In this document: piece by piece, positions 5,765 to 60,281 of the stretch
How the letters are laid out: each line of letters starts with the position of its first letter
Position numbering within the stretch: the stretch's first letter is position 1
NCBI GenBank assembly: GCA_963841735.1
Contig: CAWJDT010000001.1
Coordinates: 320,001 to 384,000, forward strand
Reading direction: 5' to 3'
Length of the DNA stretch: 64,000 bases
Origin: an uncultured Actinomycetes bacterium
GTDB taxonomy: Bacteria > Actinomycetota > Thermoleophilia > RBG-16-64-13
Notes under the pieces: generated by a model
Told to the model about the DNA's origin: nothing
Seen by the model: only the letters and a program-made list of their open reading frames with translations
Database searches by the model: none
Position numbers and translations under genes: made by a program

Positions 5765-5815
5765 TCGCGCCGCAAACGGGGGCTCGCGCCCTCGTGGGCC
5801 GCGAGCGCTGCGCTG

Positions 5816-6776
5816 TCAGTCCAGCAGCCCCGCGGGCAGATCCGACCCACGCGGCGATAATCGCCTGGATCTGGTCCTCGTAGCGCGCCAGCCGCGAGTC
5901 TATGTCGACTTCGCCGCTCAGGGCGGCTTGGATGGCCAGAAACAGCCAGAGATGGGTCCGGAGAAGATCTCCGCGATCGTACTTGTCGTCCCAGGAGGCC
6001 CTCATGTAGCTGTTGTCCTGAGCGCCGAGCAGACTGTAGGCGATCAACTCGAAGGGAACAGGCTCCCCGGGTGACCCCTTCGGGCGCATGGCCTTCAGGT
6101 CCTCGATCATGGGACCGACGATGGCCCCAAACGCCTCCTCCACGAACTTGCGGATGTCGCTCTCCCCGTGAGTGCCCTCCGAGTGGATGAGACCTATCAC
6201 ATCCACACCCAGAGCACGTATCCGGAGGTCGCCGACCAAGTTGGCAAGCAGCCTCTCTCCAAAGTCGGTTGTCCTGGCCAGTTCGGGCTGCCGGTCGGCC
6301 ACGTTCCACTTGATGAAGGTGTTGTGACACTCGATCAGGAGCCGGCGCTTGCTCGGGAAGTGATCATAGAAGACGTGCGGAGTGACTCCGGCCTTCTTGA
6401 TGATGGTGGCCACGTGGGTCTGCCGGTACCCCTTGGTCATGAACTCCCTGGTGGCGACCAGGATGATGGCCCTGTGGGTCCGCACATTCTCCTGCTCCGC
6501 AAGATCGACACCGCTCTGGTTGGCCCGGTCGAGCGTGTGCTCAAGCTCGTCCTTGATCTCCGCCAGCGAGCGGCCGGCCTGCTTCAGCTCACCGATCTGC
6601 ATGAGCATCTGAACGTGGTCCTCGGAGTACAGTGAGCGGCTGGCCGCCGTCTTCGCGGGTTGGGGCAGCAGCCCTTCGCGGATGTAGTAGTGGATGGTGC
6701 TTCGCGCCACCCCGGTCGCCTGCTCAAGAGCGGAGATTGTCAGTGCCTTGCACGATGTGCGGTCTCCTCGACTCAC
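5816..6776 (-). CDS. MerR-HTH plus TetR-HTH fusion transcriptional regulator (exact ends uncertain, probable frameshift near the 3' end)
   Basis: N-terminal ISALEQATGVARSTIHYYIREGLLP (MerR), then FMTKGYRQTHVATIIKKAGVTPHVFYDHFPSK (TetR). The called ORF overlaps the convergent aminotransferase; a TGA at 5816-5818 in another frame is the likely real stop. Confidence 0.8.
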
Positions 6777-13410: not shown

Positions 13411-14706
13411 TCACATGAGGACGCGAACCCTGAACGGCAAAGAAAGGGGTGCACAATGAAAAGACCATTCTTGGCAGTCGCCAGCATGGTCCTGGTCGGC
13501 CAACTGACAGTGAGTCTGCTCACCGGCTGCGGCGGCGACTCGACCGCCGCTACCGCCGGCGCAGTCACGACAGACACCACCGCGGCGGCTCCGACGACCA
13601 CCCTCTCGGCCGGAGACACGGGCGTCGTTCTTCCCGACGCCGTCTACACCGACTTCAAGAACCTCGGCAAAGGGCAACTCGACGTCGAAGCCTGGAAGGC
13701 TACCGAAGCGGCCCAGAAGACCGTCGAGCACAAGAGGAACCCCTTCCTCTACAGGAACGAGATGGACCCGGCCGTAATAGCCTACTGGGACGCCTTGGGG
13801 ATCAAGAAGGAGATGCACGACGCGGATGAACCGGCCCTGAAATGGGCGAGCTACACTCCGCTGGCGGCGCTCGCGGACGGCAACACGGCCGTCTATCCGG
13901 TGGTGTTCGACTTCGTCGGGGCTGAGAAGCTCATATTCTACGCAGAGACCCACGGAATAGCATATCGTGGGGGCCACAGAGGGCTACATCACCATCTGCC
14001 CCTCCAATCCCGTAGCCATGAAGGCTATCGACCCCGCCGCCATGGGCGCCTACGAGGATCTCACCGCAGGGGGCCAGGTCGTCAGGATCCTGGACGCTCT
14101 TGAGGCACAGGGCTATCCGATCGACAGGAGCCGAGTCTACGTGACCGGCATGTCGACGGGCGGCGTCGCGACTGCGCTGGCGGGCCTCGAACATACCAGA
14201 TGTCGTCGCGGCGTGTCGCCATGCACAGTTCGGTCTCATGCGCTCTCAATACCGAGCAAGACGGCGTCGTTCACATTCTTCACTCCCGCGAGCGACTACG
14301 CGAAGGCCATGGACTACGGAGCATCCCCATGCTCGCGGTGGCTGGCGATCACGACATGGCGATGCTCCCGATCAACGACCGCGGGCGTCATCAGCGGGAC
14401 TGAACCTGTGGCTGCAGGTGAACGGCTGCCCCACCCAACTCGCCTTGGAGGATAGCCTCGCGGCCCAGGCGAGCAGCACCGATCCGGCGGTCAAGGCCAT
14501 AGGCGTGGTGGGCGACAAGATGTGGACCGAGACCATCGACGGACGTCGTGCACTACGGCGCTGAGTTCAACCGCGCCGATGGCGTGAAGATGGTCGAGCT
14601 CGTATGTGTGACCAACCTGCCGCACATGGCGAGACTCCGCCTTTCCGCAGATGGCCTGGGACTTCATGAGCAGGTTCTCCAGGGATGCCGAAGGCAATCT
14701 GATCGT
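13342..14706 (+). repeat. Near-identical 59-bp 3' segments of esterase paralogs 2 and 3 (13342..13400 and 14648..14706)
   Basis: CAGATGGCCTGGGACTTCATGAGCA...GGCAATCTGATCGT; 56/59 identical by manual comparison. Confidence 0.85.
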
Positions 14707-14716
14707 GGCGGACTGA
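13456..14716 (+). CDS. Lipoprotein esterase paralog 3; multiple frameshifts
   Basis: Lipobox LTGC, Thr-rich linker, VYVTGMSTG, NLPH. Shares MDPA..WD.LGIKKE.HDA and WASYTP with paralog 2. Confidence 0.72.
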
Positions 14717-14739
14717 GCGCGAGCCACCACAGCTGCCAA

Positions 14740-14780
14740 GAGAGGAGGTCCACTTTCGAGTGGGCCTCCTCTCCTTCTTC
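14740..14780 (+). terminator. Intrinsic terminator hairpin between convergent genes, possibly bidirectional
   Basis: GAGAGGAGGTCCACT-TTCG-AGTGGGCCTCCTCTC followed by CTTCTTCT. Confidence 0.7.
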
Positions 14781-14791
14781 TGGGAATATCG

Positions 14792-17443
14792 TCAGCGCAG
14801 ATCGACGAAGACCTGGTGCTCTCCTCCACCCAGCGCGCGTGTCTCCCCGTCCAAGCGAAGTTCGGCGGTGGCCATCGCCGGCACGGTGAGATCCACCGAG
14901 ACCCTCTCCCCTCCCGCTTCCACGAGCAGGAAGCCTCCCCGTAGGGGGTCTGCACGCTGCAGTCAGCGTGCGCCAGCCCGCAGTGAAGGTCGGGGCTGAA
15001 TACTATGTGCCGGTACCCGGCTTCCCCTATCGTGATGCCGCCGATGTTCCGGTATATCCAGTCACCCACACTGCCCAACGCGTAGTGATTGAAGGACGAG
15101 TTGGTGACGGTGCCGTCGGGCGCGATCGCTTCCCAACTCTCCCAGATGGTCGTCGCGCCCCTCTCCACCATGTACAGCCACGACGGGCTCTCAGTCTGGA
15201 ACAGCAGCCGGTAGGCCACGTCCTTGTGGCCCGCTTCGGTGAGCACGTCCAGCAGATGCGGAGTGGACACGAAGCCGGTATCCAGCCGATATCCGTTCTC
15301 TTCGATCATGCGGACCAGACGCCCGGCCACCCGCTCCTTAAGCGCGCCTTCGACAACATCCGCGTACAGGGCCAGGACGTACATGCCCATCAGGTCGCCG
15401 CGGATCAGCCCGTCGTCGGAGATGAACTCCTCTCGGACCGCCTGTTTGATCTTGGGCAGCAGCGCTCCGTAGCGCGCCCGCTTCTCCAGAAGGTCCTCGC
15501 TGGGCTCCTCCTCCAGCAGCGCGTCCAGCACGGCCAGGAACGCCCGCACCGTGACAGCGTAATAGCAGGCCGCGATCACCTCTCGGGTGGCCGCCACGCC
15601 GTTCATCACACCCCCGGGCTCTTTGGCGAAGCTGGGGATGAGCCAATCGCCAAAGTGATGCCCCTTGGTCCAGAGGTAGGGGTTGCGCGCCTGTTGCGCC
15701 GGAGTCAGTGAGTCCCAGCCCTCGGGCTTCCGAGCGGCCGCGGCGGCGATGAAACCCAGCCAGCGCTCCATCATGGGGAGGTTGTCCCGCAGCACATGCT
15801 TGTCGCCGTAGCAGCGGTAGAGGTCGTACGGCACCAGCACGCAGGCGTCACCCCACGCCGCGGAGGAGTTGTCCCCCGCCTTCTCCCGCTCCATGCGGTC
15901 CTGCGCGGGATAGCACGGCACGACCATCGGGACCTCGCCGTCCTCTTTCTGCTCTGCCCGCATGTCGGCCAACCAGCTCACCAGAAAGTTGTGCAGGTCG
16001 AAATCGAAGCACCCCGTCTTGGCAAAGACCAAGATGTCCCCCGTCCAGCCCATCTTCTCCCGCTGGGGGCAGTCCGTCGGCACCGAGAACATGTTGCTGC
16101 GCTCGCTCTGCCGGATGTTGCGCTGCAGGGCGTTCAGGCGCTCGTCGGAGCACGAGAAGTGTCCGGTGCTTCTAAGCGCGGTCCCCAGGGCGAGAGCCTG
16201 CACCCGGACTATCTGATCGTGGGCGACGCCTGCGATACGCACGTAGCGGAACCCGTGATAGGTGAACCGGGGGCGGAACGTGGTCACCCCCGCCGGGCAG
16301 ACAAATACGTCGCGCTGGTCCTTGTTGCGGCCCATGATGTTGCGGATGAATCCGCCGTCCTTGCCCAAGACCTCCGAGAAGTCGAGCACTACCTCAGTCT
16401 GCTCGGCGGCCCGCACCGTCAACTCGGCGACACCGGCCAAGCACTTGCCGAAATCGACCACCAAGTCCCCTTCGGGCGTGGTGAAGACTGTCTGCGGGTC
16501 CAGCCGTTCCCACTCGACCACGGGCGGCTTCGGCTGTGCGATCAGATTGCCGGTGCCGTAGGCCGCCGGCGTCACGGGCTCCCAAGCGCGCGGGGAGTGC
16601 CACATAGTCATGACGCTCACCTATGAACAGGTCGGCATAGTCGATGTACGAGCGACGACTCTCAAAGGAAGTGTCGGAGCAGACCTGGTGCGTCGCCCCG
16701 TCCTCATCGATCCACTCCAGCTGCATCAGGAATCCCAGCCTGTCGCCGTACTGGCAGCTGTCGCCCGACAGCCCGATGCGCCCTATCCACCAGCCGTCCG
16801 CCAGCGTCACGGTGATCTCGTTCTCGCCCTCCCGGAGAAGGGCCGCCACATCGTAGGTCTGATAGAAGAGGCGGTCGTGGTAGGCCGAAGTCTCCGGGGC
16901 CAGCAGGTTCTTGCCCGCCGGCTGTCCGTTGACGAGCAACTCGTATACGCCGTGTGCGGTGGCGTATAGCCTGGCCTTTCGCGTGCGTCCGGCGCAGGTC
17001 AACGTCTTCTTCAGTTCTCGACACGGTCGCAGGCGGTCCTGCCCACCGAAGTCGTCGTCGTGGGGCGTAAAAAGGTAGTGCATCTGCACTTCCTTTTCCC
17101 GGATAGCCGGGTCCTGCAGGGGCTCGATCCACTCAGCAGCCCAGGGGGTACCCATGAAACCCGTCTCGAACGCGGCACCGCACTCGCCCGCGACCTCGCC
17201 CTGCAGATAGGAGACAGCCTTCGCGGTGAAGACGGTCTTGGGGGACAGCGCCGCCCCGCCATACCGGAAGTGCGGACTCGCGAACGCCGATACGCCCGTG
17301 TCCCACAGCACCTCGCCGCCCGGGCCCGTCACGACCAGGCGCACCGCGTCGAAGCGCTCGATGCTCCGCAGCTGGAGCGAGAAGGTCGGCCCGCCGTCGT
17401 CGGTCACGACGTGGCCCGCGAGACCGTTGACGAACAGTTCCAT
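14792..17443 (-). CDS. GH78 alpha-L-rhamnosidase; frameshifts near 16600 and 14900
   Basis: LYATAHGVYE, FTYHGFRY, PTDCPQREKMGWTGD, AWGDA, FGDW, GATTIWESW, SFNHYALG. The ATG overlaps the upstream TAA (TAATG). Confidence 0.9.
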
Positions 17444-18384
17444 TACAGCTTCGCCCAATCCTCGAAGTGCAATTTGATGAACTCCATGGTGCGCGCTGTC
17501 TGTTCCGCCAACGTTCCATCGGCCGCGGCCGCCAAGATCGCGGGCGGGCACCAGTCCTCCAGCTCACCGCGATGGGCGAATTCGAAGAACCCGTGGGCCA
17601 TGCCTTTCGCCACCATGCTGTCCACCTGCACACCCGCTTGCCGCAGCATGTCCGCGTACTTTTCGCCCTCGTCAAACAGGCCGTCCGCCTCGGCCAGCAC
17701 GAACACCGCGCGTGGAAGCCCAATCAGATCGTCCGTCGAAGCGCAGATAGGGGAGAGCAACGGATCCGCCGGGTCTTCCTTGCCGATGTGGGCTTGGTTG
17801 AAGTACGTGTACATCGCCAGTTCCATCGGATCGAGGCGCTTCGCCTGCGGCGGTGTCACGGAGTCCACGAACGGATACACCAGGATCTGCAGACCGATGG
17901 AGTATTCCTTCTTCCTGTTGGCCATGATGCACACCGTCGCCGACTCGGTCGCACCCGCGCTGTTGCCCATCACCGCGACCCTACCGCGGTCGAAGTCGTG
18001 GGCGCCGCTGTCCAGGTAGTACTTGATGACGTCGTACGCGTCGTAGAGAGGGGCCGGGAAGGGGTTCTCCTCTCCCTTGCGATAGTCGATGGAGACCACG
18101 TTCGCCCCCAAAGCCTGCCGCACCGCATGCCAGAGGATGTCGTCCAGCGCGCTGCCGCCGAACATGAAGCCGCCGCCATGGAAGGCGAACACCACCGGCG
18201 CTCCCGCCTGGTCGACCGGGTAGAACACGGTATCCAGCGTCCTACCGGGGAGCGAGATGGACTCGCGTATGCCGCGGACGGGCACGATCTTGTTGAGTTC
18301 TTTCATCAGCTTGACGCCAGCGGCCACTTCCAGCTTTGCGGCTGCCATCGCCTCAGGCGAGGGGGCATCGGTCACAACGATCAC
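17443..18384 (-). CDS. Alpha/beta hydrolase, HSL/family IV esterase
   Basis: FHGGGF oxyanion motif, GNSAG nucleophile elbow, AEADGL, HGF. Confidence 0.88.
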   Translation of the reverse strand: MIVVTDAPSPEAMAAAKLEVAAGVKLMKELNKIVPVRGIRESISLPGRTLDTVFYPVDQAGAPVVFAFHGGGFMFGGSALDDILWHAVRQALGANVVSIDYRKGEENPFPAPLYDAYDVIKYYLDSGAHDFDRGRVAVMGNSAGATESATVCIMANRKKEYSIGLQILVYPFVDSVTPPQAKRLDPMELAMYTYFNQAHIGKEDPADPLLSPICASTDDLIGLPRAVFVLAEADGLFDEGEKYADMLRQAGVQVDSMVAKGMAHGFFEFAHRGELEDWCPPAILAAAADGTLAEQTARTMEFIKLHFEDWAKL

Positions 18385-48520: not shown

Positions 48521-49026
48521 TCAGGACCTGCCAGAGGTCTCGACGGCCGGCCTCGCCTGCCTGGTGTGTCTCCTCAGAGCTAGTGTCTCAAGCAGGGATC
48601 GCTCGATCACCTCCGGCGAAGGTGGGCAGCCCCGGATACGGAGAGCGACCGGCAACACGTCCTCGAGCGGTCCCGCCAGTTCGCTGGGAGCCCCCAGCAC
48701 CCCACATCCGCATGCGCAGTCCCCCAGCGCGACCACCAGCCGCGGCTCGGGCATGGCGTCGTAGGCCGTGCGAAGGGGCACGACCATTCGCGTGGTGATG
48801 GCGCCCGTCACCAGCAGGACGTCGGCGTGCCGAGGCGAGGCGACCACGTTGAGGCCGTGACGCCCCAGGTCGTAGTGCGGACCCGACCCGGCGCCCAGCT
48901 CGTGCTCGCAGCCATTGCACGAGCCGGCGTCCACGTGACGCACGGCGAGCGACCCCGGCCGCTTGGATGACGGCAGCAGCTGATCTGGCGCCGGAGTCTG
49001 CGCAGTTCGTTAAGCAGGACGAACAC
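48521..49026 (-). CDS. Group 4 hydrogenase/Ehr small subunit (NuoB/HycG/HyfI family); frameshift near the 5' end
   Basis: GSCNGCE, ASPRHADVLLVTG, GDCA, GCPP. Confidence 0.88.
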
Positions 49027-49035
49027 GGTGCCCCC

Positions 49036-50520
49036 TCAACGGTCGCAACAGGAGTAACAGAGCTCGAAGCTCTTGTTGATAAGGGGAAAGTCGGGCAGGA
49101 TCTCCCCGGCCGCCGCCCTGGCCAGCGCGGGCCAGTTGGCGTAGGAAGCCGGTGCGGAGGTGAAGACGCGTGACGCGGTCGTCGGCGGCTTCCAGGATGC
49201 AGACCGTTTCTCCGCGCGGACTCTCGACGCTCGCCACACCCACGGGTTCGGCCGACACCCGCGACAGTGCCCTGCCGGCTCCACGCCCTCCGCCAGCAGC
49301 TCGTCCAACAAGCCGAGGGTCACCTCCAGTTCCATGGCCCGCACGTCCATGCGACCGGCGACGTCGCCGGTCGCGGGACTGGGCACGGCAGGCGAGAAGT
49401 CCCGATAGCTCAGACGCGGACTGTCGACCCTCGCGTCCAGAGCCACACCCGCCGCGCGCGCCGCCGGCCCGACGACACCCAGCTGGGCGCACTTCGTCCG
49501 GGGAGATAACACCAACACCGACGAAACGGTCCTGAACCGAAGCGTTGAACAGCACCTCGTGCCAGGCCCTGCGGGCGTCATCTCTCAACGCGCGCAGTTC
49601 TTGGCGGGCCTCCGCCACAGCAACGCGGTCGATCTGCCATTTGCTGCCCCCCACGGCGATGGTGTCGAAGAGAAACCGGTGCCCGGTGAGAGATCCGGTT
49701 GAGGCGCTGGGCGCGCTCTTTGAGCGCGGCAAAGGCCATGTTGCCCGGCTGCGAAGCCCACGCCGGCGCAGACGGCGCCGATGTCGTTGAGATGGTTGTA
49801 GAGACGCTCCAGTTCGAGCAGTATCGTGCGAACACGAGCCAGTCCGGGCTCGGGCCACAGACCCAGAAGCGACTCCGCGGCGTGCGCATAGGCCACCGAG
49901 TTGCTCACGGCGCAGGCGGCGCAGGCGCGCTGCGCATAGACCAGGCCTTCCGCGAGGGTGCGGCCTTCGGCGGCACGCTCCAGGCCTCGGTGCTTGTAGA
50001 ACAGACGCAGGTCGATGTGGAGGATCTTCTCGCCCACCACGTGGAAGCGGAAGTGGCCCGATTCGATCACCCCCGCGTGGATGGGACCGACCGCCACCTG
50101 GAAGGCGTCGTGACCAGAGACCGGCACCGTCCATGAGGACAGTCCGCTCGTATGCTCGACCAGCGGCCGCAGAGGCACGTGGCCGGAGAAGCCGCAGGCC
50201 GTAGAGGTCCTTGGCTTCTCGCTCATCCCAGCCCGCGGCAGGCGCCAGGTCGACGATGCTCGGGCACCTCGCCGTCCGGCGCGGCTGCCGCCAGCAGGAT
50301 CGGACCCTCCGGGTCTGGCGAACAGCGCCCGCACTCCACGCCCAGCCGGCATCACCGCGCTACCCGGAGTATTTTCGTCCACCCCGTAAAGCGCAAGAAA
50401 GCGCCCCGTGCCAGCCAAGACGGCTGCGCAGCGCTCTGGCCAGTCGGCGAGCGTGATCTGGTCGATCTGCAGCCCGACAGGCCGCTGTTCGGGCATGGGC
50501 GTCACATTCTCGGCACTCAC
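49036..50520 (-). CDS. Group 4 hydrogenase/Ehr large subunit (NuoC+NuoD, HycE/HyfG-like); several frameshifts
   Basis: VGPIHAGVIESGHF, YKHRGLE, QRACAACAVSN, ELERLYNHL, VESPRGE, DFPLINKSFELCYSCCDR-stop. Confidence 0.88.
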
Positions 50521-51998
50521 GGCAGACCTCCAGCCAAGGTGTGGACAAGGTCCGACCCGGGCAGCACCAGTGTCAGCGCCGCGAGAGCAACCAGCAGAAC
50601 CGCGGCCGCGATGCTGAGCACACCCACCCCGCGTCCACCGGCCAAGCCGTCGCGACGCGGGCGGCGGCTCGAACCAAGAAGATCCTGCACCAACACGTGG
50701 GCAAGGCCCAGGAAGCCGAACGCAAGCAGCAACGCGGCGACCGCTGCGCTGACCGTGTGGCCGGAGGTGAACCCACCCATGAGTATAAGCACCTCGCTAA
50801 AGAAGAGCGGCGACGGCGGCAGGCCGCTGAGCGAGCCCAGGCTCAGGCCCATGCCCGCCACGAGAGCGGGATTCTCCCCCAGCAGGCCACGCGGCCGGGT
50901 ACCGCCGCGCCGAGGGTCGCAGGTCGAAGAGCGGCGTAGCCGCGTAGAAGCCCAGAGACTTGGCTACCGCGTGCCCGCCCAGATGCAGGACGACGCCGGC
51001 GATGGCCAGCGAGTTGCCGAACCCGATGCCGAGTGCGATCACTCCCATGTGTTCCAGGCTGGAATAGGCCAGTAGTCGTTTCCAGGCCAAGAGGCCGCCA
51101 CAAGAACGGGCACGGCCACCGCCAAGGGATGCCAGGCCGAACGCCAGAAACACGCCGTGGCCGACACGGACTCCCACTGCCGGCACCAACGCCTGTTCGG
51201 TCCGCCAGGCGATGAGCATGACTGTCGGTAGGAGCGCCGCTGAGAGCAGAGCCGAGATGGGCGGCGGTGCTTCGCTGTGGGCATCCGGAAGCCAGTTGTG
51301 CACCGGAGCCCAGCCGATCTTGGTGGCCAAGACCGCAGAACAGAAGCAGAAAGCCGCCCAACGTGGCCGCGTGTGGCATCGCCGAAGCCGAGGCGGCGAG
51401 ACCGCGCCAAGATAGCCCGGCCATGCCCGACGCTGCGCTCGGGGAGCGCGACGTACAGCACCACCACGCCAAGCAGCGCCACGGTCAGACCCGCCGTGGT
51501 GAGGATCAAGTACTTCCACCCGGCTTCGAGAGCCCGGGGGCGACCGCTGTAGGCCACAAGGAGAGCTGAGACCGCCGGTGGTGGCCTCGATGACGATCCA
51601 GGCGACTCCCAGATTGCCGGCAAGCGGAATGGCCAGCAGCGCCGCCCAGAAGATGTGAGAAGCAGAGGTAGTACGAGGCTCGAGCGCGCGATGGCCGGAA
51701 GAAACTACGGTGACCGGTGCTCAGATAGGCAGGTGATACCAGGGCGCTGCACAAACCCACGAACGCGATGACGGCCGAGAAAGGGCGCGCCGAGCGTATC
51801 CAAGACGACCCAGTCGCTGCCGCCAACCTTGTCTGCGCCGACGACTGCGAGGACGGCGGCCCCGAAAGCTGCGGCTGCCGTGAGCGCCGCCGTAACGCGA
51901 TTTATCCAGTCCTGACTGCGCGCCGTGGGGGCGACTTGTATCAGAGCCCCGCCTAACAGCGGAAGGGCGGGAACGATGAGAGCATAGTATGCGGGCAT
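50517..51998 (-). CDS. hyfF: HyfF-like antiporter-type membrane subunit; frameshifted
   Basis: EAGWKY, TKIGWAPVHNWLPDAHSEAP, KRLLAYSSLEHMG, GLPPSPLFFSE. Confidence 0.8.
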
Positions 51999-51999
51999 G

Positions 52000-52617
52000 T
52001 CAATCACGCAGACCCCGCAAAACCGCGGTATCTCCGGTGCCGAACTCGCCGAAGATGCGCTTGTGAAAAGCCACCGCTACAGTGATCACCATGACAAGAT
52101 CGAAAGCCACCCCAAGCTCGATCACAAGCGGCAGACCTCCGGGAACCACCACCGCAACAAGGGCCACAGCGTTTTCGGCGACGATGAGACCCAACAGGTG
52201 GAAGATGGTCTGGCGGCGTACGACGATCGTGGCGATACCGATCGTGAGCAGACCCACGCCGGCCTGCTCGGCCGCCGGAGAGGCGAGACCGAAGGGGGGC
52301 GCAAGCATGACTACGACGAACACCGCTGCCACGACCAAGCCTAGGCGCATGAGCGGTTTCATCCGCGAACGCAGCGGGCGTGGCTCACGGGTACGGCTGA
52401 CGCTGTAGGCCAGCAGCCCACAGAGAGGCAGCGCACGGACGAAAAGGGCCAGGCTCGCGATCAGAAACTCCGTCGAGCGTCCGTGAGAGAGCACCAGCGC
52501 GTACACCCCGAGCAGCAGGGTTTGGAGGGCGACCAGCGCGATGGCCGTCGCCCGGCGACGAGTGCTCACAACCAGCAGTCCGAGAGCCACCATCCCCCAA
52601 CTGAGCGCCTCAGTCAT
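52000..52617 (-). CDS. hyfE: HyfE-like membrane subunit
   Basis: Multi-TM protein with AENAV, P..IELG..FD and DT..LR.LRD tail. Confidence 0.8.
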   Translation of the reverse strand: MTEALSWGMVALGLLVVSTRRRATAIALVALQTLLLGVYALVLSHGRSTEFLIASLALFVRALPLCGLLAYSVSRTREPRPLRSRMKPLMRLGLVVAAVFVVVMLAPPFGLASPAAEQAGVGLLTIGIATIVVRRQTIFHLLGLIVAENAVALVAVVVPGGLPLVIELGVAFDLVMVITVAVAFHKRIFGEFGTGDTAVLRGLRD

Positions 52618-53543
52618 AGTTGGCCGCCGATCAGCCAACTGAGCAGCCCCAGGAAACAGAGGCCCATGCCGACCACCAGCAGTCGCGGCACCCGCAGCAG
52701 CCGCATCTTAGCCTGCCACGACTCCACCACCGCCAGCACTGCGCACAGGATCGGCAGCCCGACCGCCAGGACGACCATCCGCCACACAAAACCGACAGGA
52801 TGAGGCGCGAACAGCTCGAGGGCCAACACGAGCATGATCCAATGCTTGGCAGCCGCGGCCCACTGCAGGTAGGCCAGATCCCGCCCGGCGTATTCCAGCA
52901 GCGGGCCCTCGTGGATCATGGTGAGCTCAAGATGAGTGTCGGGGTTGTCCACTGGTTGACGCCCGGTCTCGGCGATCACCACGAGGGCGAAGGCCGCTGC
53001 CGCAAGCCAGTGAGTCGGCAGGCTCCAGATGTGCGCCCCCGCCGCGGCGTCGCTCAAGGAGCGCAGATCGGTGCTGCCAAAAGGCAGCGCCGCCAACATC
53101 AGCACAAACAACAGCAGTCCCTCCACCGCGACGCCGATTGTGAGATCACGGCTGGAGCCCATGAGCGCAAAGCCGCTCCCTGTATCCCAGGAAGCCATGG
53201 CCAGAGCAAAGCGGGCCAGCGCGAGCATCCCGACCAGCAGCAGGGCATCGTGGCCCACAGGCCAGGCGAGGGAGTGTCCACCAATCGGGACCAGGAGCAG
53301 CGAGACGGCCAGACCGGCCGCGACCACCGGCGGTGCCAGACGATAGAGCACAGTGCCGCCCTCAGGGTCGACGGCGCTCCGCGACCAAAGACGGGCGAGC
53401 TCCCGGTAGGGCTGCAACGGTGACGGTCCCCGCCGTCCCTGAAGCCTCGCTTTGAAACTCTGCGTCAGACCGGGCAGCAGGGGAGCAAGGGCGACCCCCC
53501 CAACCACCTGCACAGCGCCGGCCACTATGTCGGCGGCGCTCAT
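52614..53543 (-). CDS. hyfC: HyfC/HycD (NuoH-family) membrane subunit
   Basis: QGRRGPS.LQPY, GSSR, ETGRQPVDNPDTHLELTMIHE..LEY. Confidence 0.88.
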   Translation of the reverse strand: MSAADIVAGAVQVVGGVALAPLLPGLTQSFKARLQGRRGPSPLQPYRELARLWSRSAVDPEGGTVLYRLAPPVVAAGLAVSLLLVPIGGHSLAWPVGHDALLLVGMLALARFALAMASWDTGSGFALMGSSRDLTIGVAVEGLLLFVLMLAALPFGSTDLRSLSDAAAGAHIWSLPTHWLAAAAFALVVIAETGRQPVDNPDTHLELTMIHEGPLLEYAGRDLAYLQWAAAAKHWIMLVLALELFAPHPVGFVWRMVVLAVGLPILCAVLAVVESWQAKMRLLRVPRLLVVGMGLCFLGLLSWLIGGQL

Positions 53544-53568
53544 ATGCACCGCCCGCATCCCTGGGGTC

Positions 53569-55607
53569 TCATCTCACACCCCACAGCCAGGCCGCCGCGA
53601 GCGCGACGATGACCAGTAGCAGCAGATAGGCCATGTAGGCCCGGATGCTGCCCGACTGCAGACGCCGGGCATAGGACGCGGCGGCGAGAGCCCAGCGCAC
53701 CACCGGACGGTAGAGCTTCGTGTCAAAGAGGTGCGGCACCGATCCGCTGTAGGTGAGGCGCTGCACAACGCCATTCTCCCTTTCGAGGGTGACGGTCCGC
53801 TCCGGTCGAAGCACCGCCTCCAACACCAAGCGCAGCGGTTTGGTGAATCCGGCCGAGGTCCAGTTCAGAGCCGGTTCGACCCGCTGCCCGCAGGTCCAGA
53901 CGGGAGCCGTAGCCGCCCGCCGCTTGCCCCGCATTAGCACCAGCAGAGCGACCAGGGCCACTAGGATCAGCCCAAGTCCCAGAGTGGGCAACCCGCCCGT
54001 TCCCGTTAGCGGCACACCCACCTTCCACGGCAGCACCGAGGCACCCACCCCCGAGAACACGCCGGCCGCCGCCTCGCCGCCGGGAGCGAGCCTGGCCAGG
54101 GAGGGCAACAGAAGTCCGGGGAGCAGGCCCAGTACCACGCAGAGCGCGGCCAACGTAGTTGTCGCAACCATCATGGGCATGGACACCTCGCGAGCGGCCT
54201 CACAGGCCGGGCGTCGCGGAGGGCCCAGAAGCACGAGCCCGACCACTTTGGCGAAGCAGAACACGGCCAAGGCCGCGGTCATCGCCAGCGCGACCGTCGC
54301 TACCGCGCCCACGATGGCCGGTCCCCAAGTGGCCCCCTGCGCCGCGCCGGCACCGGCAGCGCTCAGCCCGGCCGCCCCCGTGCCAGTCACCACGTGCACC
54401 AGTGCCTGAAGCGTGAGCCATTCGGAGACAAATCCATTCAGAGGCGGCAGACCTGCGATGGCCATGGAGCCAATCAAGAAGGCCCCGCCCGTCCAGGGCA
54501 TCCGACGCAGCAGCCCGCCCAGGCGGTCGAGTTCCAGCCCATGTACTGCCTTGTCGATCGATCCGGCGCTGAGGAAGAGAAGGCCCTTGAACACGGCGTG
54601 ATTGAGGACGTGCAGCAAGGCGGCGGCAAATGCCAGTGCCGCCCAAGCGGGTTGGCCCAGCCGTCTGGAAGAGAAGCGAAGCGCCCAGCCCGAGCACGAT
54701 GATGCCGATGTTCTCGATGGAGTGAAAGGCGAGCAGTCGCTTGAGTTCGTGCTGGAAGAGCGCATAGACGACGCCTCCCAGCGACGAGAGCGCACCCAGG
54801 CCCAGAAGCACCAGGGCCAGCCACACCGGCGTCCCGCCCAGCCACTCGAAGAGCACCCGGATCAAGCCGTAGAGGGCCACCTTGATCATCATGCCCGACA
54901 TCAACGCCGAGATGTGGCTGGGAGCCAGCGGATGGGCCCTGGGCAACCAGCTGTGAAGAGGCATTATGCCCTGCCTTGGCGCCGAAACCCACGATGGCCG
55001 CGAGCCCGATGAACACCTGTAGAGGCGCGCCTATGCCTTGGAGGGCCGTGGGATCACCAAGCACGCCGTGGCCGGCCAGCAGCAGAAGCGACACCCATAC
55101 CCCGACGCCGCCGAGGTGCGTGATGGCGAGATACTCGAACACCGAGCGGCGGGCGTCCGTGTCACGCCGCACGACCAATATGGCCCCAGCCGGCAGCAGC
55201 GTCATGAGTTCCCAGAAAGTCAGAAACGAGGGAGCCGAGCGCGCCGTGAGCACCCCGACCATGGCCAGGAGAAAACCCGCCGTGAGCGCCCCGATCACGG
55301 TGGCGCGGCGAATGCCACGGAGATAGCCCATCGCATAGACCAGCGCGGGCACGCCAGAGACGGCAAGAGCGGCCAAGAAGAATCCGGTCAGCGGGTCGAC
55401 GCCGAACGTCAGTTCCGGGCCACTGCCGAAGGGCGACCCAGCTGTAGTTCTACCCAGAAGGGCGACGAGCCCACCTGCGCCGATCGTGGCAAGACCCGCG
55501 ACCTGTAGCCCCAGGCCCCAAGTCAGCAGCGCCCGCCCCAGGCACAGCGCACCTCCCGCCGCGACCGCGATGGCCCCGGCGACTATGAACCAGGCGACCA
55601 GACTCAC
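53569..55607 (-). CDS. hyfB: HyfB-like antiporter-type membrane subunit; frameshifted
   Basis: FWELM, PLHSWLPRAHP.APS, KRLLAFHSIENIG, NHAVFKGLLF, GLPPLNGFVSEW, WTCG, LQSG. Confidence 0.85.
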
Positions 55608-55978
55608 GAAATACTGTTCGCTTCTTGGTCGGAAGCGGGTGGGGGCTCGGGTATTGAAAGCTCCTCGAGCAGAGCGCGGGTCTCTGACAGGCCGGAGAGA
55701 ATGACCTGGCGAGCGGTCTCGAGCATCTGGAACATGAGGGGGTCCCGAACCGAGTACCGGACGGTCGTGCCCACCTTGCGGCCTTCGACGATGCCCTGCT
55801 GCCGCAGCGCCGCCAGATGCTGCGAGGTGCCGCTGGAGTCAAGTTGGAGCTCCACCTGCAGCTCACCCACCGTCATGTCGCCGTCCCTCAACAGCTCGAG
55901 AATGCGCACCCGGGCCGGGTGACCCAATACACGGAAGAAGTCCGCCTTCACCGTGTGTATGGGCAGTTGACTGTTCAA
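55604..55978 (-). CDS. ArsR/SmtB-family regulator (Rv0081-like)
   Basis: KADFFRVLGHPARVRILELL...SQHLAALR...Y; first gene of the hyf-like operon. Confidence 0.9.
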   Translation of the reverse strand: MNSQLPIHTVKADFFRVLGHPARVRILELLRDGDMTVGELQVELQLDSSGTSQHLAALRQQGIVEGRKVGTTVRYSVRDPLMFQMLETARQVILSGLSETRALLEELSIPEPPPASDQEANSIS

Positions 55979-56202: not shown

Positions 56203-56868
56203 ATGAGCGCTAACGATGCCAGACCGACGATCTCCGCGGAAGCCAGACTGCATGGGTTCGAGCAAGCGCTTCTGGAAATGGACCGCGCTAAAACCCAGCG
56301 AGTTGTTGCAGCCGCGCGAGACACGCTATCCGCGGACCGCATCGTGGAGGATCTGATAGTCCCCGCTCTTGAGAGCATGGGGCACGAGTGGGAGTCAGGC
56401 CGGCTGGCCCTCTCCCAGATCTACATGGGCGGGCGCATCTGCGAAGAACTGGTAGACGCTCTGATGCCACCGGCCAGCCCCCAGCGCAAGAACCAACCGC
56501 ATATGGCGATCGCCGTGCTGGAGGATCACCATCTGCTGGGCAAGCGCATCGTCTATTCTCTGCTGAGGGCTGGCGGGTATGACTTGCTCGACTATGGAAA
56601 CGTTGATGCCGCCTCCCTGATGCACCAGACCCAGCGCGACCAGATCGAGGTCCTGCTCATCTCTACGCTCATGTTGCCCTCCGCGCTGCGTATCGGGGGG
56701 GTGAGCCTCGGTTTGAGGAGCGCCGGATGGACCGGAAAGATAGTGGTGGGCGGCGCGCCGTTCCGCTTCGACGATCAGCTCTGGCGAGAGGTAGGCGCAG
56801 ATGCGACCAGCGCCACCGCATCCGGCCTCATATCACTCCTAGCCCAATTCGGAGTTGAGGCCGCATGA
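56203..56868 (+). CDS. Corrinoid (cobalamin-binding) protein
   Basis: Four-helix cap (PALESMG..WESG), DHHLLG (DxHxxG), ISTLM (SxL), VGGAPF. AGGAGG RBS before ATG 56203. Confidence 0.9.
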   Translation: MSANDARPTISAEARLHGFEQALLEMDRAKTQRVVAAARDTLSADRIVEDLIVPALESMGHEWESGRLALSQIYMGGRICEELVDALMPPASPQRKNQPHMAIAVLEDHHLLGKRIVYSLLRAGGYDLLDYGNVDAASLMHQTQRDQIEVLLISTLMLPSALRIGGVSLGLRSAGWTGKIVVGGAPFRFDDQLWREVGADATSATASGLISLLAQFGVEAA

Positions 56869-57926
56869 AGACCACGGCCATGACGTCAATGCAACGAACA
56901 CTGACCACCCTGGGTCATCAGGAGCCGGACAGGGTGCCGCTTTTCCTACTGCTTTCCCTACACGGGGCCAAGGAGCTGGGACTCTCCATCAAAGACTACT
57001 TTGCCCGGCCCGAATACGTCGCCGAAGGTCAAATCCGGCTCCGAGCAAAGTACGGCAATGACTGTCTCGACGCTTTCTTCTATGCACCCATCGAGGTGGA
57101 AGTTTGGGGGGGTGAGGTGTTGTACCGCGAGGACGGACCTCCCAACTCGGGCGAGCCGTTTCTCCGCCGGCCAGAGGACATCCTGGAACTCACGGTGCCT
57201 CGAGTGGCTGAGTCGCCCTGCCTGCTCAAGGTCATACAGGCCATCGAGATGATGAAGGTCCGCGGCGGTGACGAGATCCCCATCATCGGCGTGGTCATGT
57301 CGCCATTCTCCCTGCCGGTGATGCAGCTTGGCTTCGACCATTACTTGGACGTGCTCTATGAACGGAAGGACCTCTTCGCCCGTCTGCTGCGGGTCAACGA
57401 GGAGTTCTGCGTCGAGTGGGCCAACGCTCAGCTGACAGCGGGGGCTACGGCCATCTGCTATTTCGACCCTGTTTCCTCCCCGAGCATCATCCCCCGCGAG
57501 CTTTTCCTCAAAACCGGCTACCTCATCGCCAAGCAGACGATTTCTCGCATCGCCGGCCCGACGGCCGGTCACCTGGCCTCAGGCACATGTCTGCCCATCT
57601 TGGACGCCCTCGCACAAACGGGGATGGCCGCGGTGGGGGTGAGCGCGTCGGAGGATCTTGCGGAACTCAAGGCAGCGGCAGCGGGCAAGATCACTCTACT
57701 CGGCAACCTGAACGGCATCGAGATGCGGCGCTGGACCCCGGACCAAACCGAAGCCGCAGTCAAGCAGGCCATCGCGAAAGCAGGGGCCGATGGAGGCTTC
57801 ATTCTGTCGGACAACCACGGCGAGATCCCGTGGCAGGTCCCAGACGAGGTCTTGTTGAACATCTCGGAAGCCGTGGAGCATTGGGGGCAGTACCCGCTTC
57901 GCTGGACGCGGGCCTATGCAGACTGA
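56865..57926 (+). CDS. UroD/MtaA(MT2)-superfamily protein
   Basis: MTSMQR...EPDRVP, SPFSL, YFDP, LLGNL, GGFILS. Lacks the HemE RQAGR motif. Starts in an ATGA overlap. Confidence 0.85.
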   Translation: MKTTAMTSMQRTLTTLGHQEPDRVPLFLLLSLHGAKELGLSIKDYFARPEYVAEGQIRLRAKYGNDCLDAFFYAPIEVEVWGGEVLYREDGPPNSGEPFLRRPEDILELTVPRVAESPCLLKVIQAIEMMKVRGGDEIPIIGVVMSPFSLPVMQLGFDHYLDVLYERKDLFARLLRVNEEFCVEWANAQLTAGATAICYFDPVSSPSIIPRELFLKTGYLIAKQTISRIAGPTAGHLASGTCLPILDALAQTGMAAVGVSASEDLAELKAAAAGKITLLGNLNGIEMRRWTPDQTEAAVKQAIAKAGADGGFILSDNHGEIPWQVPDEVLLNISEAVEHWGQYPLRWTRAYAD

Positions 57927-59190
57927 GCTTGTCTTCCTTGTCTGCGAGAACCTCGAACAGGAAGCACGGGCCGTCACGGAGATAGAGCATTGGGAGAACG
58001 TCGAGGTGTTGACGTGCCCTGCACTCTGCACAGACCCCCAGGACCACTCCAGGACCGCCCGGGAGATCGAGGCCGCGAGTAGCCAACATCCTGAGCACTG
58101 CCTGGTGGTCGGCTGTGGAGGGCTGCGGGAGTTGGCCGGCAGCGGACATGAAGGACCGCCGCGCGGCAGAGTGGCCATGGCTTCCTGCTTCGAGTTGGTG
58201 GTGGGGCCCCATCTTGCGGCAGGCTGGATGCAGGACGGCGCCCTTCTCCTTACCCCTGGGTGGCTGGAGCATTGGCCGGAATATGTCCGGGTCTGGGGAT
58301 TCGACCAAGCCACCGCGAAGGAGTTCTTCGCCGAATCCGCTTCCCGCTTGGTCCTGCTCGATACCGGAGTGCGGCTTGAGAGCGCCCGGTGCCTGGCCGA
58401 GTTTGCCTCGTTCGTGGGCCGCCCTGCCGAGACCGTCCCGGTGGGGTTGGACTACTTCCGCCTTAACCTGGCCCAAATGCTTCTTTCCTCGCAACTTGAT
58501 GAGCAACGAGCGACACACACCTCCGCTCTGGCCGACTCCCAGCGGAAGCTTGCGGACTACGCCATGTCCTACGATCTGGTGGGCAGCTTGGCAGGGATGA
58601 AGTCGGAAGACCGGGTGGTCGAAGCGATATTCGAGTTGTTCGCTATGTTGTTCGCTCCCGCGGGCCTGGTCTATATTCCGATGGTCGGAGGCAAGGCGAG
58701 GCCCACACGCTTCATGCCCGAACGGCTGGCAACAGACCCCAGCGCCACAACCGGACTGGCCGAGCTGCGCGAGGAGTACGCTTGGACCGATTCGGGCCAA
58801 GGCTTCGTACTACGCCTGGGAGAACCAGAGGCGGTGTTGGGTATCCTCAAGGTGGAAGGCATCGCGTTCCCGCAGTACATCCAGCACTACCTGAACCTGG
58901 GCCTGAACCTGGCCCGGGTTTGCGCCCTGGCACTACGCAATGCCCGCGTATATGGGGAACTGCAATCCACTATCGGCCAGCTTCAGGAAGCCCTGACCAG
59001 TATCAAGACCTTGTCAGGACTCCTACCCATATGCGCCGGATGCAAGAAGATCCGTGACGACAATGGCTTCTGGACGCAGGTTGAATCATATGTGAGCAAG
59101 CGCACCTCGGCCACCTTCAGCCATGGTCTTTGCCCTGACTGCCTGGCTAAGTACTATCCAGAGTTGGCGGACGAGACGGAGACGGCATGA
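57916..59190 (+). CDS. DUF1638-like domain, GAF-like domain and C-terminal Cys/His domain protein
   Basis: Cys-rich N-terminus (LVC, CPALC, VGCG, SCFE, LTPGW, LLDTG, VGLDYF); GAF-like LGILKV...LALRNARVY; tail LSGLLPICAGCKKIRDD.G.W...FSHGLCPDC. Confidence 0.75.
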   Translation: MQTELVFLVCENLEQEARAVTEIEHWENVEVLTCPALCTDPQDHSRTAREIEAASSQHPEHCLVVGCGGLRELAGSGHEGPPRGRVAMASCFELVVGPHLAAGWMQDGALLLTPGWLEHWPEYVRVWGFDQATAKEFFAESASRLVLLDTGVRLESARCLAEFASFVGRPAETVPVGLDYFRLNLAQMLLSSQLDEQRATHTSALADSQRKLADYAMSYDLVGSLAGMKSEDRVVEAIFELFAMLFAPAGLVYIPMVGGKARPTRFMPERLATDPSATTGLAELREEYAWTDSGQGFVLRLGEPEAVLGILKVEGIAFPQYIQHYLNLGLNLARVCALALRNARVYGELQSTIGQLQEALTSIKTLSGLLPICAGCKKIRDDNGFWTQVESYVSKRTSATFSHGLCPDCLAKYYPELADETETA

Positions 59191-59281
59191 ACCGCCTCCG
59201 TCGCCCTAGCGGATGGCGCCCGGCCGGCAACCGCTACCTCACGACAGTGGACCGATCCGCGAACCACTCCGCTACAGCCTG

Positions 59282-59878
59282 CTAGCCGCGGGCCCGCTCC
59301 AACAGCACCATCATCATAAGGCTCAAAAAGGCTCTCTTCTCATCCTCTGGGCTCAGCTCAGCGTGCTTCTCTATCTTGAACTTACCCTCAAACAACGCCG
59401 GCTGCTTCTGCATCCTCAAGACCATCCGGCCGTCCGTGGACGAGACAGTGTAGGCCGGATGAAACATGTAGCCCGAGAACATCCCGATTATCGGCAATCC
59501 TCCTACCAGGCTGTCCCAAACCTTCACCCAGGGCTTCTCTTCCCGAATGAGCATCTTGAGGCTCTCGCCCTCATACACATCGTAATGCGCCTTCCAGAGA
59601 GACTTCTTCCCCTCACGCTTGACCGAACCGACCGTCTGTCCCAACTGATCAACGAAGGTGTACCGCGGCGACCAGTCAATTATCTTGTCCGCTTTGATGT
59701 TGAAAGCCGGCCGCGTCTTCTTCTCATCCTCGAACACGGTCACGTCTTCCCTGAGCTTGAACAGTTTCTGCTTGATGTAGCCGACCAGGTTGCCGTTGGC
59801 ATCGCGGACCGCCAGTTGGGGAGACATCGCCACGATCTTGAAGGATAGGGTCAAGGGGAAACTAAGCGGGAACTGCAT
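59282..59878 (-). CDS. LURP-one/scramblase-like (Tubby C-terminal-like) protein
   Basis: From ATG 59878 after AAGGAG: KQKLFKLREDV.VFED, IKAD.IID...Y, GSVKR.G.KSLW. Confidence 0.65.
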   Translation of the reverse strand: MQFPLSFPLTLSFKIVAMSPQLAVRDANGNLVGYIKQKLFKLREDVTVFEDEKKTRPAFNIKADKIIDWSPRYTFVDQLGQTVGSVKREGKKSLWKAHYDVYEGESLKMLIREEKPWVKVWDSLVGGLPIIGMFSGYMFHPAYTVSSTDGRMVLRMQKQPALFEGKFKIEKHAELSPEDEKRAFLSLMMMVLLERARG

Positions 59879-59966
59879 TCTTGTCTCCTTGGTCGTCGCC
59901 TGTTGTTTGATTCTACCGGATTGCCTGTTCGCTTTGGGCCGCCTTATGGGCCGCCTGTTGCGCCGC

Positions 59967-60281
59967 CTATCCGTAAGAACAGCAGTAGTCCGCCGGCCCC
60001 TTGAGCACCAGTTTGAAAGACGAGTCCGCAGGCACCTCAAAGGACTGACCGGCCGCGAAGGTCTGCCAGTCTTTCGTATCGGGCAGGAGCACATGCATTT
60101 CGCCGCCCAGGATCTCCATCACCTCACGAGATTCGGTGCCAAATTCGTATTCCCCGGGCATCATGAAGCCGAGGGTCTTGTGCGTGCCATCGGCGAACAG
60201 GACGGTGCGGCTGCTGACTTTGCCGTCGAAATAGACGTTGGCTTTCTTGACGATCGTGACGTTGGCGAAATTGTCTGACAT
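59967..60281 (-). CDS. ppnP: Pyrimidine/purine nucleoside phosphorylase (DUF1255)
   Basis: [35 protein letters not shown]. Confidence 0.9.

Follow-up and report, generated by a model that had tools for sequence, protein, structure and literature searches.

A candidate cobalamin-dependent sensory cassette of a corrinoid protein, a URO-D-like protein and a DUF1638-GAF protein in an uncultured actinomycete

What use can a bacterium make of a corrinoid protein and a single methyltransferase-like protein that are encoded in one operon with what looks like a signalling protein? The question is raised by a stretch of 64,000 nucleotides from the genome of an uncultured Actinomycetes bacterium (contig CAWJDT010000001.1, positions 320,001 to 384,000; "the window" below means this whole stretch of DNA), in which positions 56,203 to 59,190 carry three genes: for a corrinoid protein (hereinafter the carrier), for a protein of the URO-D/MtaA fold (the URO-D-like protein) and for a protein joining a DUF1638 domain, a GAF-fold domain and a Cys/His-rich tail (the sensor). 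An earlier interpretation made from the DNA letters alone, referred to here as the sequence-only reading, had proposed that the methylation or redox state of the corrinoid is set by an MT2-like enzyme, read by the DUF1638 domain and relayed to an output. As judged from sequence comparisons and predicted models, this cassette is probably a self-contained cytoplasmic sensory module, through which the chemical state of a B12 cofactor would be passed on to the cell as a signal. The cassette is undescribed in the literature searched, in which subscription journals are poorly covered.

Conservation of the three genes and exchange of the sensor output

The three genes are intact and overlap on the plus strand, as had been stated in the sequence-only reading and as follows from the ORF (open reading frame) coordinates (Table 1). 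The stop codon of the carrier gene and the start codon of the URO-D-like gene share ATGA at 56865-56868, and the URO-D-like and sensor genes overlap by 11 nt (57916-57926). The sequence AGGAGG is located 12 nt 5' of the ATG at 56203, which favours this codon over GTG 56107 as the start of the carrier gene. The GC content at third codon positions (GC3) is 0.73-0.77 in each of the three genes, matching that of the neighbouring genes.

Related loci were collected by scanning one genome per species, and the best 80 of 98 confirmed stretches were kept; they span 16 named phyla, with 9 further loci named to class only or unnamed. Partner genes were scored by phmmer on six-frame ORFs, at least 1700 nt upstream of the sensor being available in 74 of the 80 loci. 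The carrier, URO-D-like and sensor genes follow one another in this order on one strand in 70 of these 74 loci (68 by automatic scoring, plus L048 and L089 after correction of over-long sensor ORF starts). All-against-all clustering of flanking ORFs of at least 90 aa recovered the sensor in 80 loci and the URO-D-like protein and the carrier in 74 each, and revealed no other recurrent flank family, as the next real family was found in at most 5 loci and the other frequent clusters were opposite-strand shadows.

The C-terminus of the sensor is exchanged among kinase, GGDEF, PP2C and tail types (Table 1), and this, together with the retention of the trio, is the pattern which had been set beforehand as a test of the signalling-module reading. 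The catalytic core HisKA/HATPase_c is present in 45 of the 80 homologous sensors and is absent, according to Pfam, from the sensor of the window. HD-type outputs were found additionally in the wider homologue search; a word-indexed search returned 1729 sensor homologues, and in the matches listed, HisKA/HATPase, GGDEF, SpoIIE, HD-type or PAS domains are attached behind a DUF1638 N-terminus. On a maximum-likelihood tree of the DUF1638-GAF core, a quick one of 75 rows (only sensors with at least 280 aligned positions being included) with unresolved deep branches, 27 changes of output type are counted; even if the starred branches alone are considered, at least 6 (kinase), 5 (GGDEF) and 5 (hybrid kinase) changes are required.

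Of 81 sensor ORFs, 68 lose their similarity to the sensor of the window at residues 340-379 and 10 keep it to the end, hence the conserved input comprises the DUF1638 domain, the helix and the GAF domain. A profile built of 68 input domains retrieved 1505, 1213 and 826 representatives (clusters at 50% identity) at E ≤1e-3, 1e-10 and 1e-30, respectively, among 1.84 billion; in all of the best 150 of the 1505 representatives, proteins of 188-1479 aa, the input domain is N-terminal. The genomic context of the loci was assessed by the 53 nearest same-strand genes, lying at most 150 nt downstream or 170 nt upstream. Further PAS, GAF, REC, kinase, GGDEF or SpoIIE proteins are encoded by 25 of them, one encodes a B12-binding radical SAM protein, and one more is the carrier gene of a second cassette in tandem. 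Such a combination of a fixed three-part front end, swappable outputs, variable context and signalling-rich neighbours is the pattern of a sensory input module.

Some loci deserve mention in their own right. Two sensors, L049:6947-8239 and L059:6875-8236 (Geobacter, Geomonas), have no output domain and close with a coiled coil of about 70 residues; both fall in a well-supported clade together with a GGDEF-type sensor. At L052:2223-8779 a full cassette is followed by a second carrier and sensor, and no second URO-D-like gene was found there; a carrier-sensor pair plus a separate full cassette occurs in Candidatus Parabeggiatoa (L019, L091). Cultured hosts with kinase or cyclic di-GMP (c-di-GMP) outputs belong to Geomonas, Geomesophilobacter, Rubrivivax, Desulfatitalea and Dethiosulfatarculus. 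Among 40 relatives of the actinomycete, a DUF1638-GAF protein was detected in one genome of the same family (37% identity, kinase type, full cassette) and in one of the same genus (29%), six other relatives matched the tail only, and a metagenome scan for close relatives yielded one distant locus only. The GC content of the cassette (0.60-0.635) is lower than that of the upstream region (0.65-0.69), which, along with the sporadic occurrence, fits lateral movement.

Domains and conserved residues of the three proteins

The domains proposed in the sequence-only reading were all recovered: Pfam places B12-binding, URO-D and DUF1638 above their cut-offs, the GAF domain is recognized by its fold, and the tail motif is present. 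The carrier consists of a four-helix cap and a Rossmann B12-binding domain (PF02607, B12-binding_2, 44.1 bits at a cut-off of 23; PF02310, B12-binding, 40.5 bits at a cut-off of 32.1). It has the His-on/base-off motif DHHLLG, corresponding to DxHxxG (D108-x-H110-x2-G113), as well as S154-x-L and G183-G184; DxHxxG, SxL and GG are the names of cobalamin-binding motifs. No variation is seen at D108, H110, G113, S154, G183 and G184 among the 55 cassette carriers aligned (the window protein and 54 of 75 cluster ORFs, those of 205-232 aa), the mean column identity being 52%. The closest solved relatives of the carrier profile are MttC (93 bits), MtmC, two bacterial corrinoid proteins, MetH and MtaC, with AerR as the last listed. 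The cut-off of TIGR02370 (the pyl_corrinoid subfamily) lies far above the carrier score (57.8 bits versus 215.3).

The URO-D-like protein is matched by PF01208 (URO-D) at residues 7-339 with 165.8 bits (cut-off 23.9), and falls below the cut-offs of TIGR01463 (MtaA/CmuA, 102.1 bits versus 235.4) and TIGR01464 (HemE, 44.2 bits versus 302.95). Since the scores for the MtaC-like, MtaA/CmuA-like and HemE models of NCBIfam are this low, the carrier and the URO-D-like protein are classified, from their sequences, as members of their superfamilies only, outside these named subfamilies. In an alignment of 46 URO-D-like proteins (that of the window and 45 of 75 cluster ORFs, 343-360 aa) the mean column identity is 68%, far above that of the carrier and that of the DUF1638 domain (42%), and residues R11, R23, D66, Y160, S205, A238, D316, H318 and E320 are invariant. 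The nearest solved relative is MtaA (4ay7), whose zinc ligands we take to be H-x-C ... C, the Cys of H-x-C being presumably one of them. In the part of the phmmer alignment considered, which does not include the position of the third ligand, H-I-C of MtaA pairs with H236-L-A238; position 236 is His in 41 of 46 proteins and position 238 is Ala in 46 of 46. Since Ala thus replaces the zinc Cys of the MtaA type throughout, thiol methyltransferase activity seems unlikely, and the conserved residues look like a constrained active site and not like that of a zinc-thiolate methyltransferase. Consequently, of the "MT2-fold enzyme" named in the sequence-only reading, the URO-D/MtaA fold is retained and the MT2 label needs correction.

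The N-terminal domain of the sensor is indeed DUF1638, as had been supposed: PF07796 matches residues 47-182 with 35.8 bits (cut-off 27), and it is also matched, at the thresholds used, in 75 of the 80 related sensors. The AlphaFold model of the sensor (predicted local distance difference test, pLDDT, 82.5) starts with an alpha/beta domain (1-178), which is followed by a long helix, a GAF fold, another long helix and a tail of low model quality; the GAF domain is flanked by the helices 179-226 and 319-368. No Pfam GAF model matches this middle domain at E ≤0.1. Its assignment comes from structural comparison, with VIA Z of 15.2 to the PDE6 GAF domain (root-mean-square deviation, rmsd, 2.3; 143 residues aligned), many GAF rows above Z 10, and VIA Z of 13.7 and Foldseek TMt of 0.61-0.67 to the KdpD GAF domain.

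Four Cys residues are conserved in 68 sensor-type DUF1638 domains, namely C10 (67/68), C38 (66/68), a Cys in the region 60-76 (C67, 67/68) and C91 (61/68), and T113-P-G-W, W120 and L-L-D149-T are kept as well. The DUF1638 domain modelled alone reached a pLDDT of 89.9 and a predicted TM-score (pTM) of 0.87. The modelled Cys residues come after the first three strands and begin a helix, a placement which would suit a cluster or metal site. The domain has no sequence relative in the PDB (best E 0.68); Foldseek aligned it to LacI/PBP-like proteins, PrpR-N and CbiK with TM of 0.35-0.46 and rmsd of about 10, and the best VIA Z values of 9.0 (110 residues aligned) and 8.4 (158 aligned) are followed by generic flavodoxin-like folds. 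Structural matches of this kind are too poor, and neither a chelatase-like nor a PBP-like fold is claimed. Comparison by hhalign of the sensor-type domain with the DUF1638 domain encoded in a catabolic cluster of the same genome (see below) gave 42.6% probability over 58 columns only.

In the tail, residues C373, C376, H403, C406 and C409 are invariant in 32 of 32 homologues sharing the sensor architecture, and REC, PAS, GAF and MASE proteins end in the same tail with 60-67% identity. No Pfam family matched it, its model confidence is low (pLDDT 44-65), and a search of the ESM Atlas with the tail returned unnamed proteins of 75-95 aa only. Probably, the Cys4/His tail is a small metal-binding output module. 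The genome holds just two tail proteins, the sensor and a 257-aa protein without a Pfam domain (C1:1621571-1622344; L007:7572-8345), which is encoded 440 nt upstream of another corrinoid gene (L007:8785-9417; region C1:1621571-1623416) followed by CoA-transferase genes. Both tail proteins therefore adjoin corrinoid-protein genes, 2 of the 4 found in the genome with this query, although for the second of them this closeness may be due to chance. That second protein had been taken for another DUF1638 protein, which was wrong, as it matched through the tail alone.

Pairwise identities of the three proteins are correlated across 31 loci (Mantel r of 0.68 for URO-D-like and carrier, 0.52 for carrier and DUF1638, and 0.34 for URO-D-like and DUF1638; p 0.001 each), a co-divergence which shared history or transfer as a unit can explain. 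Complex prediction for the carrier and the DUF1638 domain, both given as alignments, yielded a score of 0.38 (runs 0.38, 0.41 and 0.37) versus 0.00 for the best of three controls, the runs sharing at least 70% of contacts with partner pLDDT of at least 78. The mark used is reached by 116 of 157 solved complexes and by 2 of 215 mismatched pairs. Passes at 0.60 or lower comprise 18 of the 157 solved complexes and both passing mismatches, so that a pass at this level is weak, and so is the support which it lends to the interface between DUF1638 and the corrinoid protein envisaged in the sequence-only reading.

Catabolic partners, alternative explanations and the proposed mechanism

Cobalt in the Co(I) state normally requires a reductive activase for its chemistry. 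Among the 58 gene calls of the window there is no second methyltransferase, specific either for a substrate or for folate or coenzyme M (CoM), and none of the 55 calls outside the cassette is a partner of corrinoid methyltransferases. Pterin_bind, MTTB, MtaB, RACo and URO-D were found in 0 of the 53 nearest neighbours; given also the lack of a recurrent flank family, homologous trios standing beside genes of a substrate methyltransferase (MT1), a RACE activator and a tetrahydrofolate (THF) methyltransferase were not seen. In host genomes, examined for 48 of the 80 loci and of completeness not given, RACo_C_ter was present in 30 of 48; among the 18 without it are a Smithellaceae assembly at chromosome level and the cultured Rubrivivax sp. 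A210 and Candidatus Viridilinea mediisalina. The genome of the actinomycete itself (2.8 Mb assembled, completeness 89.7%) carries two RACo-type activase genes (RACo_C_ter) far from the window and none within it. It also contains a catabolic cluster at C1:1423330-1433350 (L006:1331-11352), encoding formate-THF ligase, MTHFR-like and dihydrolipoamide-dehydrogenase-like proteins, a corrinoid protein, a 669-aa URO-D::DUF1638 fusion and a pterin-binding methyltransferase. This cluster is likely an O-demethylase-type system, and the fusion is a Rosetta-stone link of URO-D with DUF1638; the organism thus possesses an ordinary corrinoid system too, with DUF1638 joined to a methyltransferase of the URO-D type. 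The statement of the sequence-only reading that MT1, THF methyltransferase and activator are lacking therefore holds for the window, but not for the genome elsewhere, with its two RACo genes and full catabolic corrinoid system.

This ordinary system bears on the alternative that the cassette is a metabolic half-system with an unlinked second methyltransferase, in which DUF1638 would take care of corrinoid maintenance (reactivation or electron delivery) and the GAF domain with the output would regulate by a separate ligand. Apart from the two RACo genes and the URO-D::DUF1638 fusion with its corrinoid and pterin-binding methyltransferase neighbours, such an explanation is favoured by data on stand-alone DUF1638 proteins: DUF1638 is required by a B12 enzyme of metabolism and, in alpha-proteobacteria, occurs together with RamA-like activases (PMC5764234), and it is described as predicted to aid cobalamin recharging (PMC12478193). 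Widespread MtaA/MtaC-like clusters without a folate methyltransferase are also known as metabolic (PMC10418091). Nevertheless, we regard the half-system as rather unlikely, considering that a second methyltransferase or activase never recurs near the trio, RACo was not found in 18 of the 48 host genomes, sensor-type DUF1638 is always N-terminal to signalling outputs (in the best 150 of 1505 representatives), the GGDEF, hybrid kinase and tail outputs have no direct action on the enzyme pair, and signalling proteins make up 25 of the 53 neighbours.

The lack of the MtaA zinc Cys, together with the ability of the URO-D fold to bind tetrapyrroles, would also agree with a sensor of cobamide supply, detecting apo versus holo carrier or the type of the lower ligand, with the URO-D-like protein as a loading or holding partner and not an enzyme; no B12 riboswitch is present in the window, and the cassette occurs in genomes without RACo. 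However, the 68% column identity and the invariant R11, R23, D66, Y160, H318 and E320 resemble a constrained active site, three proteins would be elaborate for a riboswitch's job, and the 53 neighbours give no link to cobamide uptake or synthesis, which makes this explanation improbable. As to light, a photolabile Co-C bond on the carrier might be broken by it, restored by the URO-D-like protein and reported by the sensor. B12 photoreceptors (CarH, photocobilins) are known, B12 domains fused to GGDEF, GAF and other outputs are described (PMC11796333), and phototrophs are found among the hosts (Rubrivivax, Viridilinea). Light-responsive CarH-type B12 domains hold adenosylcobalamin by GxxW and EH motifs (PMC11796333), whereas in the carrier GxxW is present (G60-x2-W63) and the positions of the EH pair, 10 and 11 residues past W63, are occupied by I73-Y74, with Y74 invariant. 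The carrier profile is, moreover, closest to corrinoid proteins of methyltransferases, with AerR last listed, and many hosts come from dark anoxic habitats (deep mine, digesters, groundwater, Thermosipho), so that a light sensor appears highly improbable.

In the preferred reading, that of a sensory module reporting the state of the B12 cofactor, the carrier would hold a cobamide, and the URO-D-like protein would dock on it as MtaA on MtaC and set or gate the state of cobalt, most likely by addition or removal of a methyl group, derived from one ubiquitous small molecule. Since a full cycle is impossible with a single methyltransferase-like partner, we favour a stoichiometric "flag" model: the read-out would be the share of the carrier that is methylated or oxidised, and not flux, and this share would mirror a donor/acceptor ratio or redox poise. 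The Cys4 DUF1638 domain with its dedicated GAF domain would be the conserved input, reading the state of the carrier by contact and relaying it along the coiled-coil spine to the fused output, which in this genome would be a Cys4/His module working by partner binding and not by catalysis. What the sequences show directly is the structure of the genes, the identity of the domains, the conserved trio, the exchange of outputs and the lack of catabolic partners; which proteins touch, what is sensed, which way the signal runs and which metal DUF1638 and the tail hold are inferred. Redox and cobamide-loading readings are kept alongside methylation on account of three features, namely the lack of the zinc site, the presence of the Cys4 site and the many hosts in which RACo was not found. 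More broadly, it is quite possible, and proposed here tentatively, that in bacteria of at least 16 phyla a corrinoid protein, serviced by an enzyme, acts as a flag (methylation or Co(I)/Co(II)/Co(III)), which is read by Cys4 DUF1638-GAF and wired to kinases, c-di-GMP enzymes, phosphatases or the tail.

Several points weigh against a sensory module of this kind. The partner genes next to the sensor are incomplete in 4 of the 74 loci, with the carrier gene only in L019 and L079, the URO-D-like gene only in L015 and neither in L027; in the genomes of L019, L027 and L015 a 66%-identical URO-D-like gene is found elsewhere, in the case of L019 within a second complete cassette. The cassette is sporadic, as DUF1638-GAF occurs in 3 of 41 genomes, including the one studied, and an orthologue in 0 of 15 genomes of the same genus. 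The absence of RACo from the 18 hosts fits a non-catalytic or redox role equally as well as methyl sensing, and the URO-D-like protein, being without the MtaA zinc Cys, may not be a methyltransferase at all. The modelled fold of DUF1638 is without a clear solved relative and so hints at no ligand, the predicted contact between carrier and DUF1638 has a weak score and came with no interface, and the function of the tail is unassigned, hence so is the output in this genome.

If the reading is true, the cassette represents a new class of cytoplasmic signal input resting on organometallic B12 chemistry, with a ubiquitous pair of methyl donor and acceptor or the redox poise of the cell as the quantity reported. 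Besides riboswitches (free cofactor) and photoreceptors (light-sensitive bond), B12-based regulation would thereby gain a third kind, and a widespread one, judging by the 826 clusters that match the input domain at E ≤1e-30. A first functional context would also be provided for DUF1638, which matters genetically to B12 enzymes of marine bacteria, and for the orphan tail, which would gain an upstream signal.

Surroundings of the cassette and comparison with known systems

Table 1. Genes and domains of the cassette in the window, and outputs of the related sensors
Feature	Position in the window or occurrence	Strand	Basis or remark
Corrinoid protein (carrier) gene, 221 aa	56203..56868	+	open frame; longest frame opens at GTG 56107
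URO-D/MtaA-fold protein gene, 353 aa	56865..57926	+	open frame
DUF1638-helix-GAF-helix-Cys/His-tail protein (sensor) gene, soluble signalling protein, 424 aa	57916..59190	+	open frame
DUF1638 input domain, residues 1-190, alpha/beta	57916..58485	+	PF07796
GAF-fold domain, ~ residues 205-350	58528..58965	+	structure comparison
C-terminal Cys/His tail, ~ residues 366-413	59011..59154	+	L-P-I-C373-x2-C376-K-K-I-R-D-D ... F-S-H403-G-x-C406-P-x-C409
Histidine kinase output	33 of 80 sensors		one known only from a cut HisKA
Hybrid kinase output	12 of 80 sensors
GGDEF output	15 of 80 sensors
GGDEF-EAL output	1 of 80 sensors
SpoIIE/PP2C output	1 of 80 sensors
Cys/His tail output	13 of 80 sensors
Coiled coil only after GAF	2 of 80 sensors
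Sensor cut by contig end	3 of 80

Upstream, the cassette is bordered by a divergent gene of an ArsR-type regulator (55604-55978, minus strand), beyond which lie subunits of a group-4-hydrogenase or complex-I-like membrane complex; the operon encoding this complex, downstream of the ArsR gene, occupies 48521-54795 (minus strand). The 49-kDa large subunit is matched here by two overlapping ORFs in different frames, 49010-50134 and 49036-49581, suggestive of a frameshift or assembly error. On the other side, the sensor gene is followed by a convergent gene (59282-60094, minus strand, GC3 0.75) with a weak LOR/Tubby-like match. A plus-strand ORF of 211 aa directly after the sensor gene (59213-59848), with GC3 of 0.55 and no family match, is probably a spurious shadow of that convergent gene; the operon consequently consists of exactly three genes. 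No sigma-70-like promoter and no plausible terminator were found around it, no RNA evidence was listed for the 3.4-kb region examined, and no Rfam family reached threshold anywhere in the window, hence no cobalamin riboswitch.

The remaining 55 of the 58 gene calls of the window are mostly sugar catabolism genes. A 747-aa HAMP-GGDEF-HD-GYP protein is encoded at 2045-4288 (plus strand), i.e., c-di-GMP signalling exists in the genome. A 364-aa ORF at 5682-6776 (minus strand) combines MerR-type and TetR-type helix-turn-helix domains and represents an unusual architecture or a fused gene call, while at 14491-17551 (minus strand) the domains of an alpha-L-rhamnosidase are divided between the overlapping ORFs 14491-16620 and 16394-17551, possibly because of a frameshift or assembly error.

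With MtaC/MtaA, MtbC/MtbA, MtsB/MtsA and the bacterial O-demethylases the cassette shares a separate His-on carrier (cap and Rossmann domain, DxHxxG) adjoining a gene of the URO-D fold. It differs from MtaC/MtaA-type systems in having one methyltransferase-like gene with no substrate, folate or CoM methyltransferase and no activase, in missing the subfamily cut-offs, in Ala at the place of the zinc Cys and in the signalling protein encoded by the third gene. Type 1 mlp clusters (Kountz and Balskus, bioRxiv 2023, PMC10418091) are alike in being widespread, horizontally moving combinations of MtaA-like and MtaC-like genes without a folate methyltransferase; they are described as containing two or three Mlps with Ram/RACE and neither DUF1638 nor a signalling protein, as occurring in obligate anaerobes only, and are proposed to serve methyl-sulfur or methyl-selenide metabolism. 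Such a cluster has at least Mlp2 and Mlp3 together with a corrinoid protein and Ram/RACE; the cassette is set apart by its gene content, with one URO-D-family gene and no RACo.

Stand-alone DUF1638 proteins, such as PGA1_c13340 of Phaeobacter inhibens and SPO2162 of Ruegeria pomeroyi, belong to the same Pfam family, are likewise encoded beside a B12-binding protein and are tied to a corrinoid enzyme; they are described as single-domain proteins of methionine synthesis or glycine betaine demethylation accompanied by RamA-like activases (PMC5764234, PMC12478193). In the former system such a protein is genetically needed for the split B12 methionine synthase (split MetH), no specific function being proposed for it there (PMC5764234). 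The DUF1638 domain of the cassette, unlike the stand-alone ones, is the N-terminal input of signalling proteins, in hosts of which 18 of 48 yielded no RACo. In CFeSP with RACo, a metabolic system, the corrinoid carrier is served by a Cys-ligated cluster domain. By analogy, the four conserved Cys residues of DUF1638 could take part in CFeSP-like electron transfer, although CFeSP has no sequence or fold relation to DUF1638. The tail resembles in layout HalOD2 (PF18547) of haloarchaeal response regulators, a short C-terminal module with two CxxC knuckles in the output position (PMC5847659). It differs from HalOD2 by the conserved His and the K-K-I-R-D-D stretch, and no Pfam model, HalOD2 included, matched it at E ≤0.1. 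The methanol regulator of PMC13602510 belongs to a different system, of the MEDS/PocR type.

A parallel in principle is provided by CarH/LitR, AerR/PpaA and photocobilins, where a B12-binding domain is also used for regulation instead of metabolism. In these light-responsive systems the B12 domain is fused to the regulator or binds it directly, whereas the cassette has no EH motif and relies on a carrier of the methyltransferase type, an enzyme-like partner and a separate DUF1638-GAF protein as the proposed reader.

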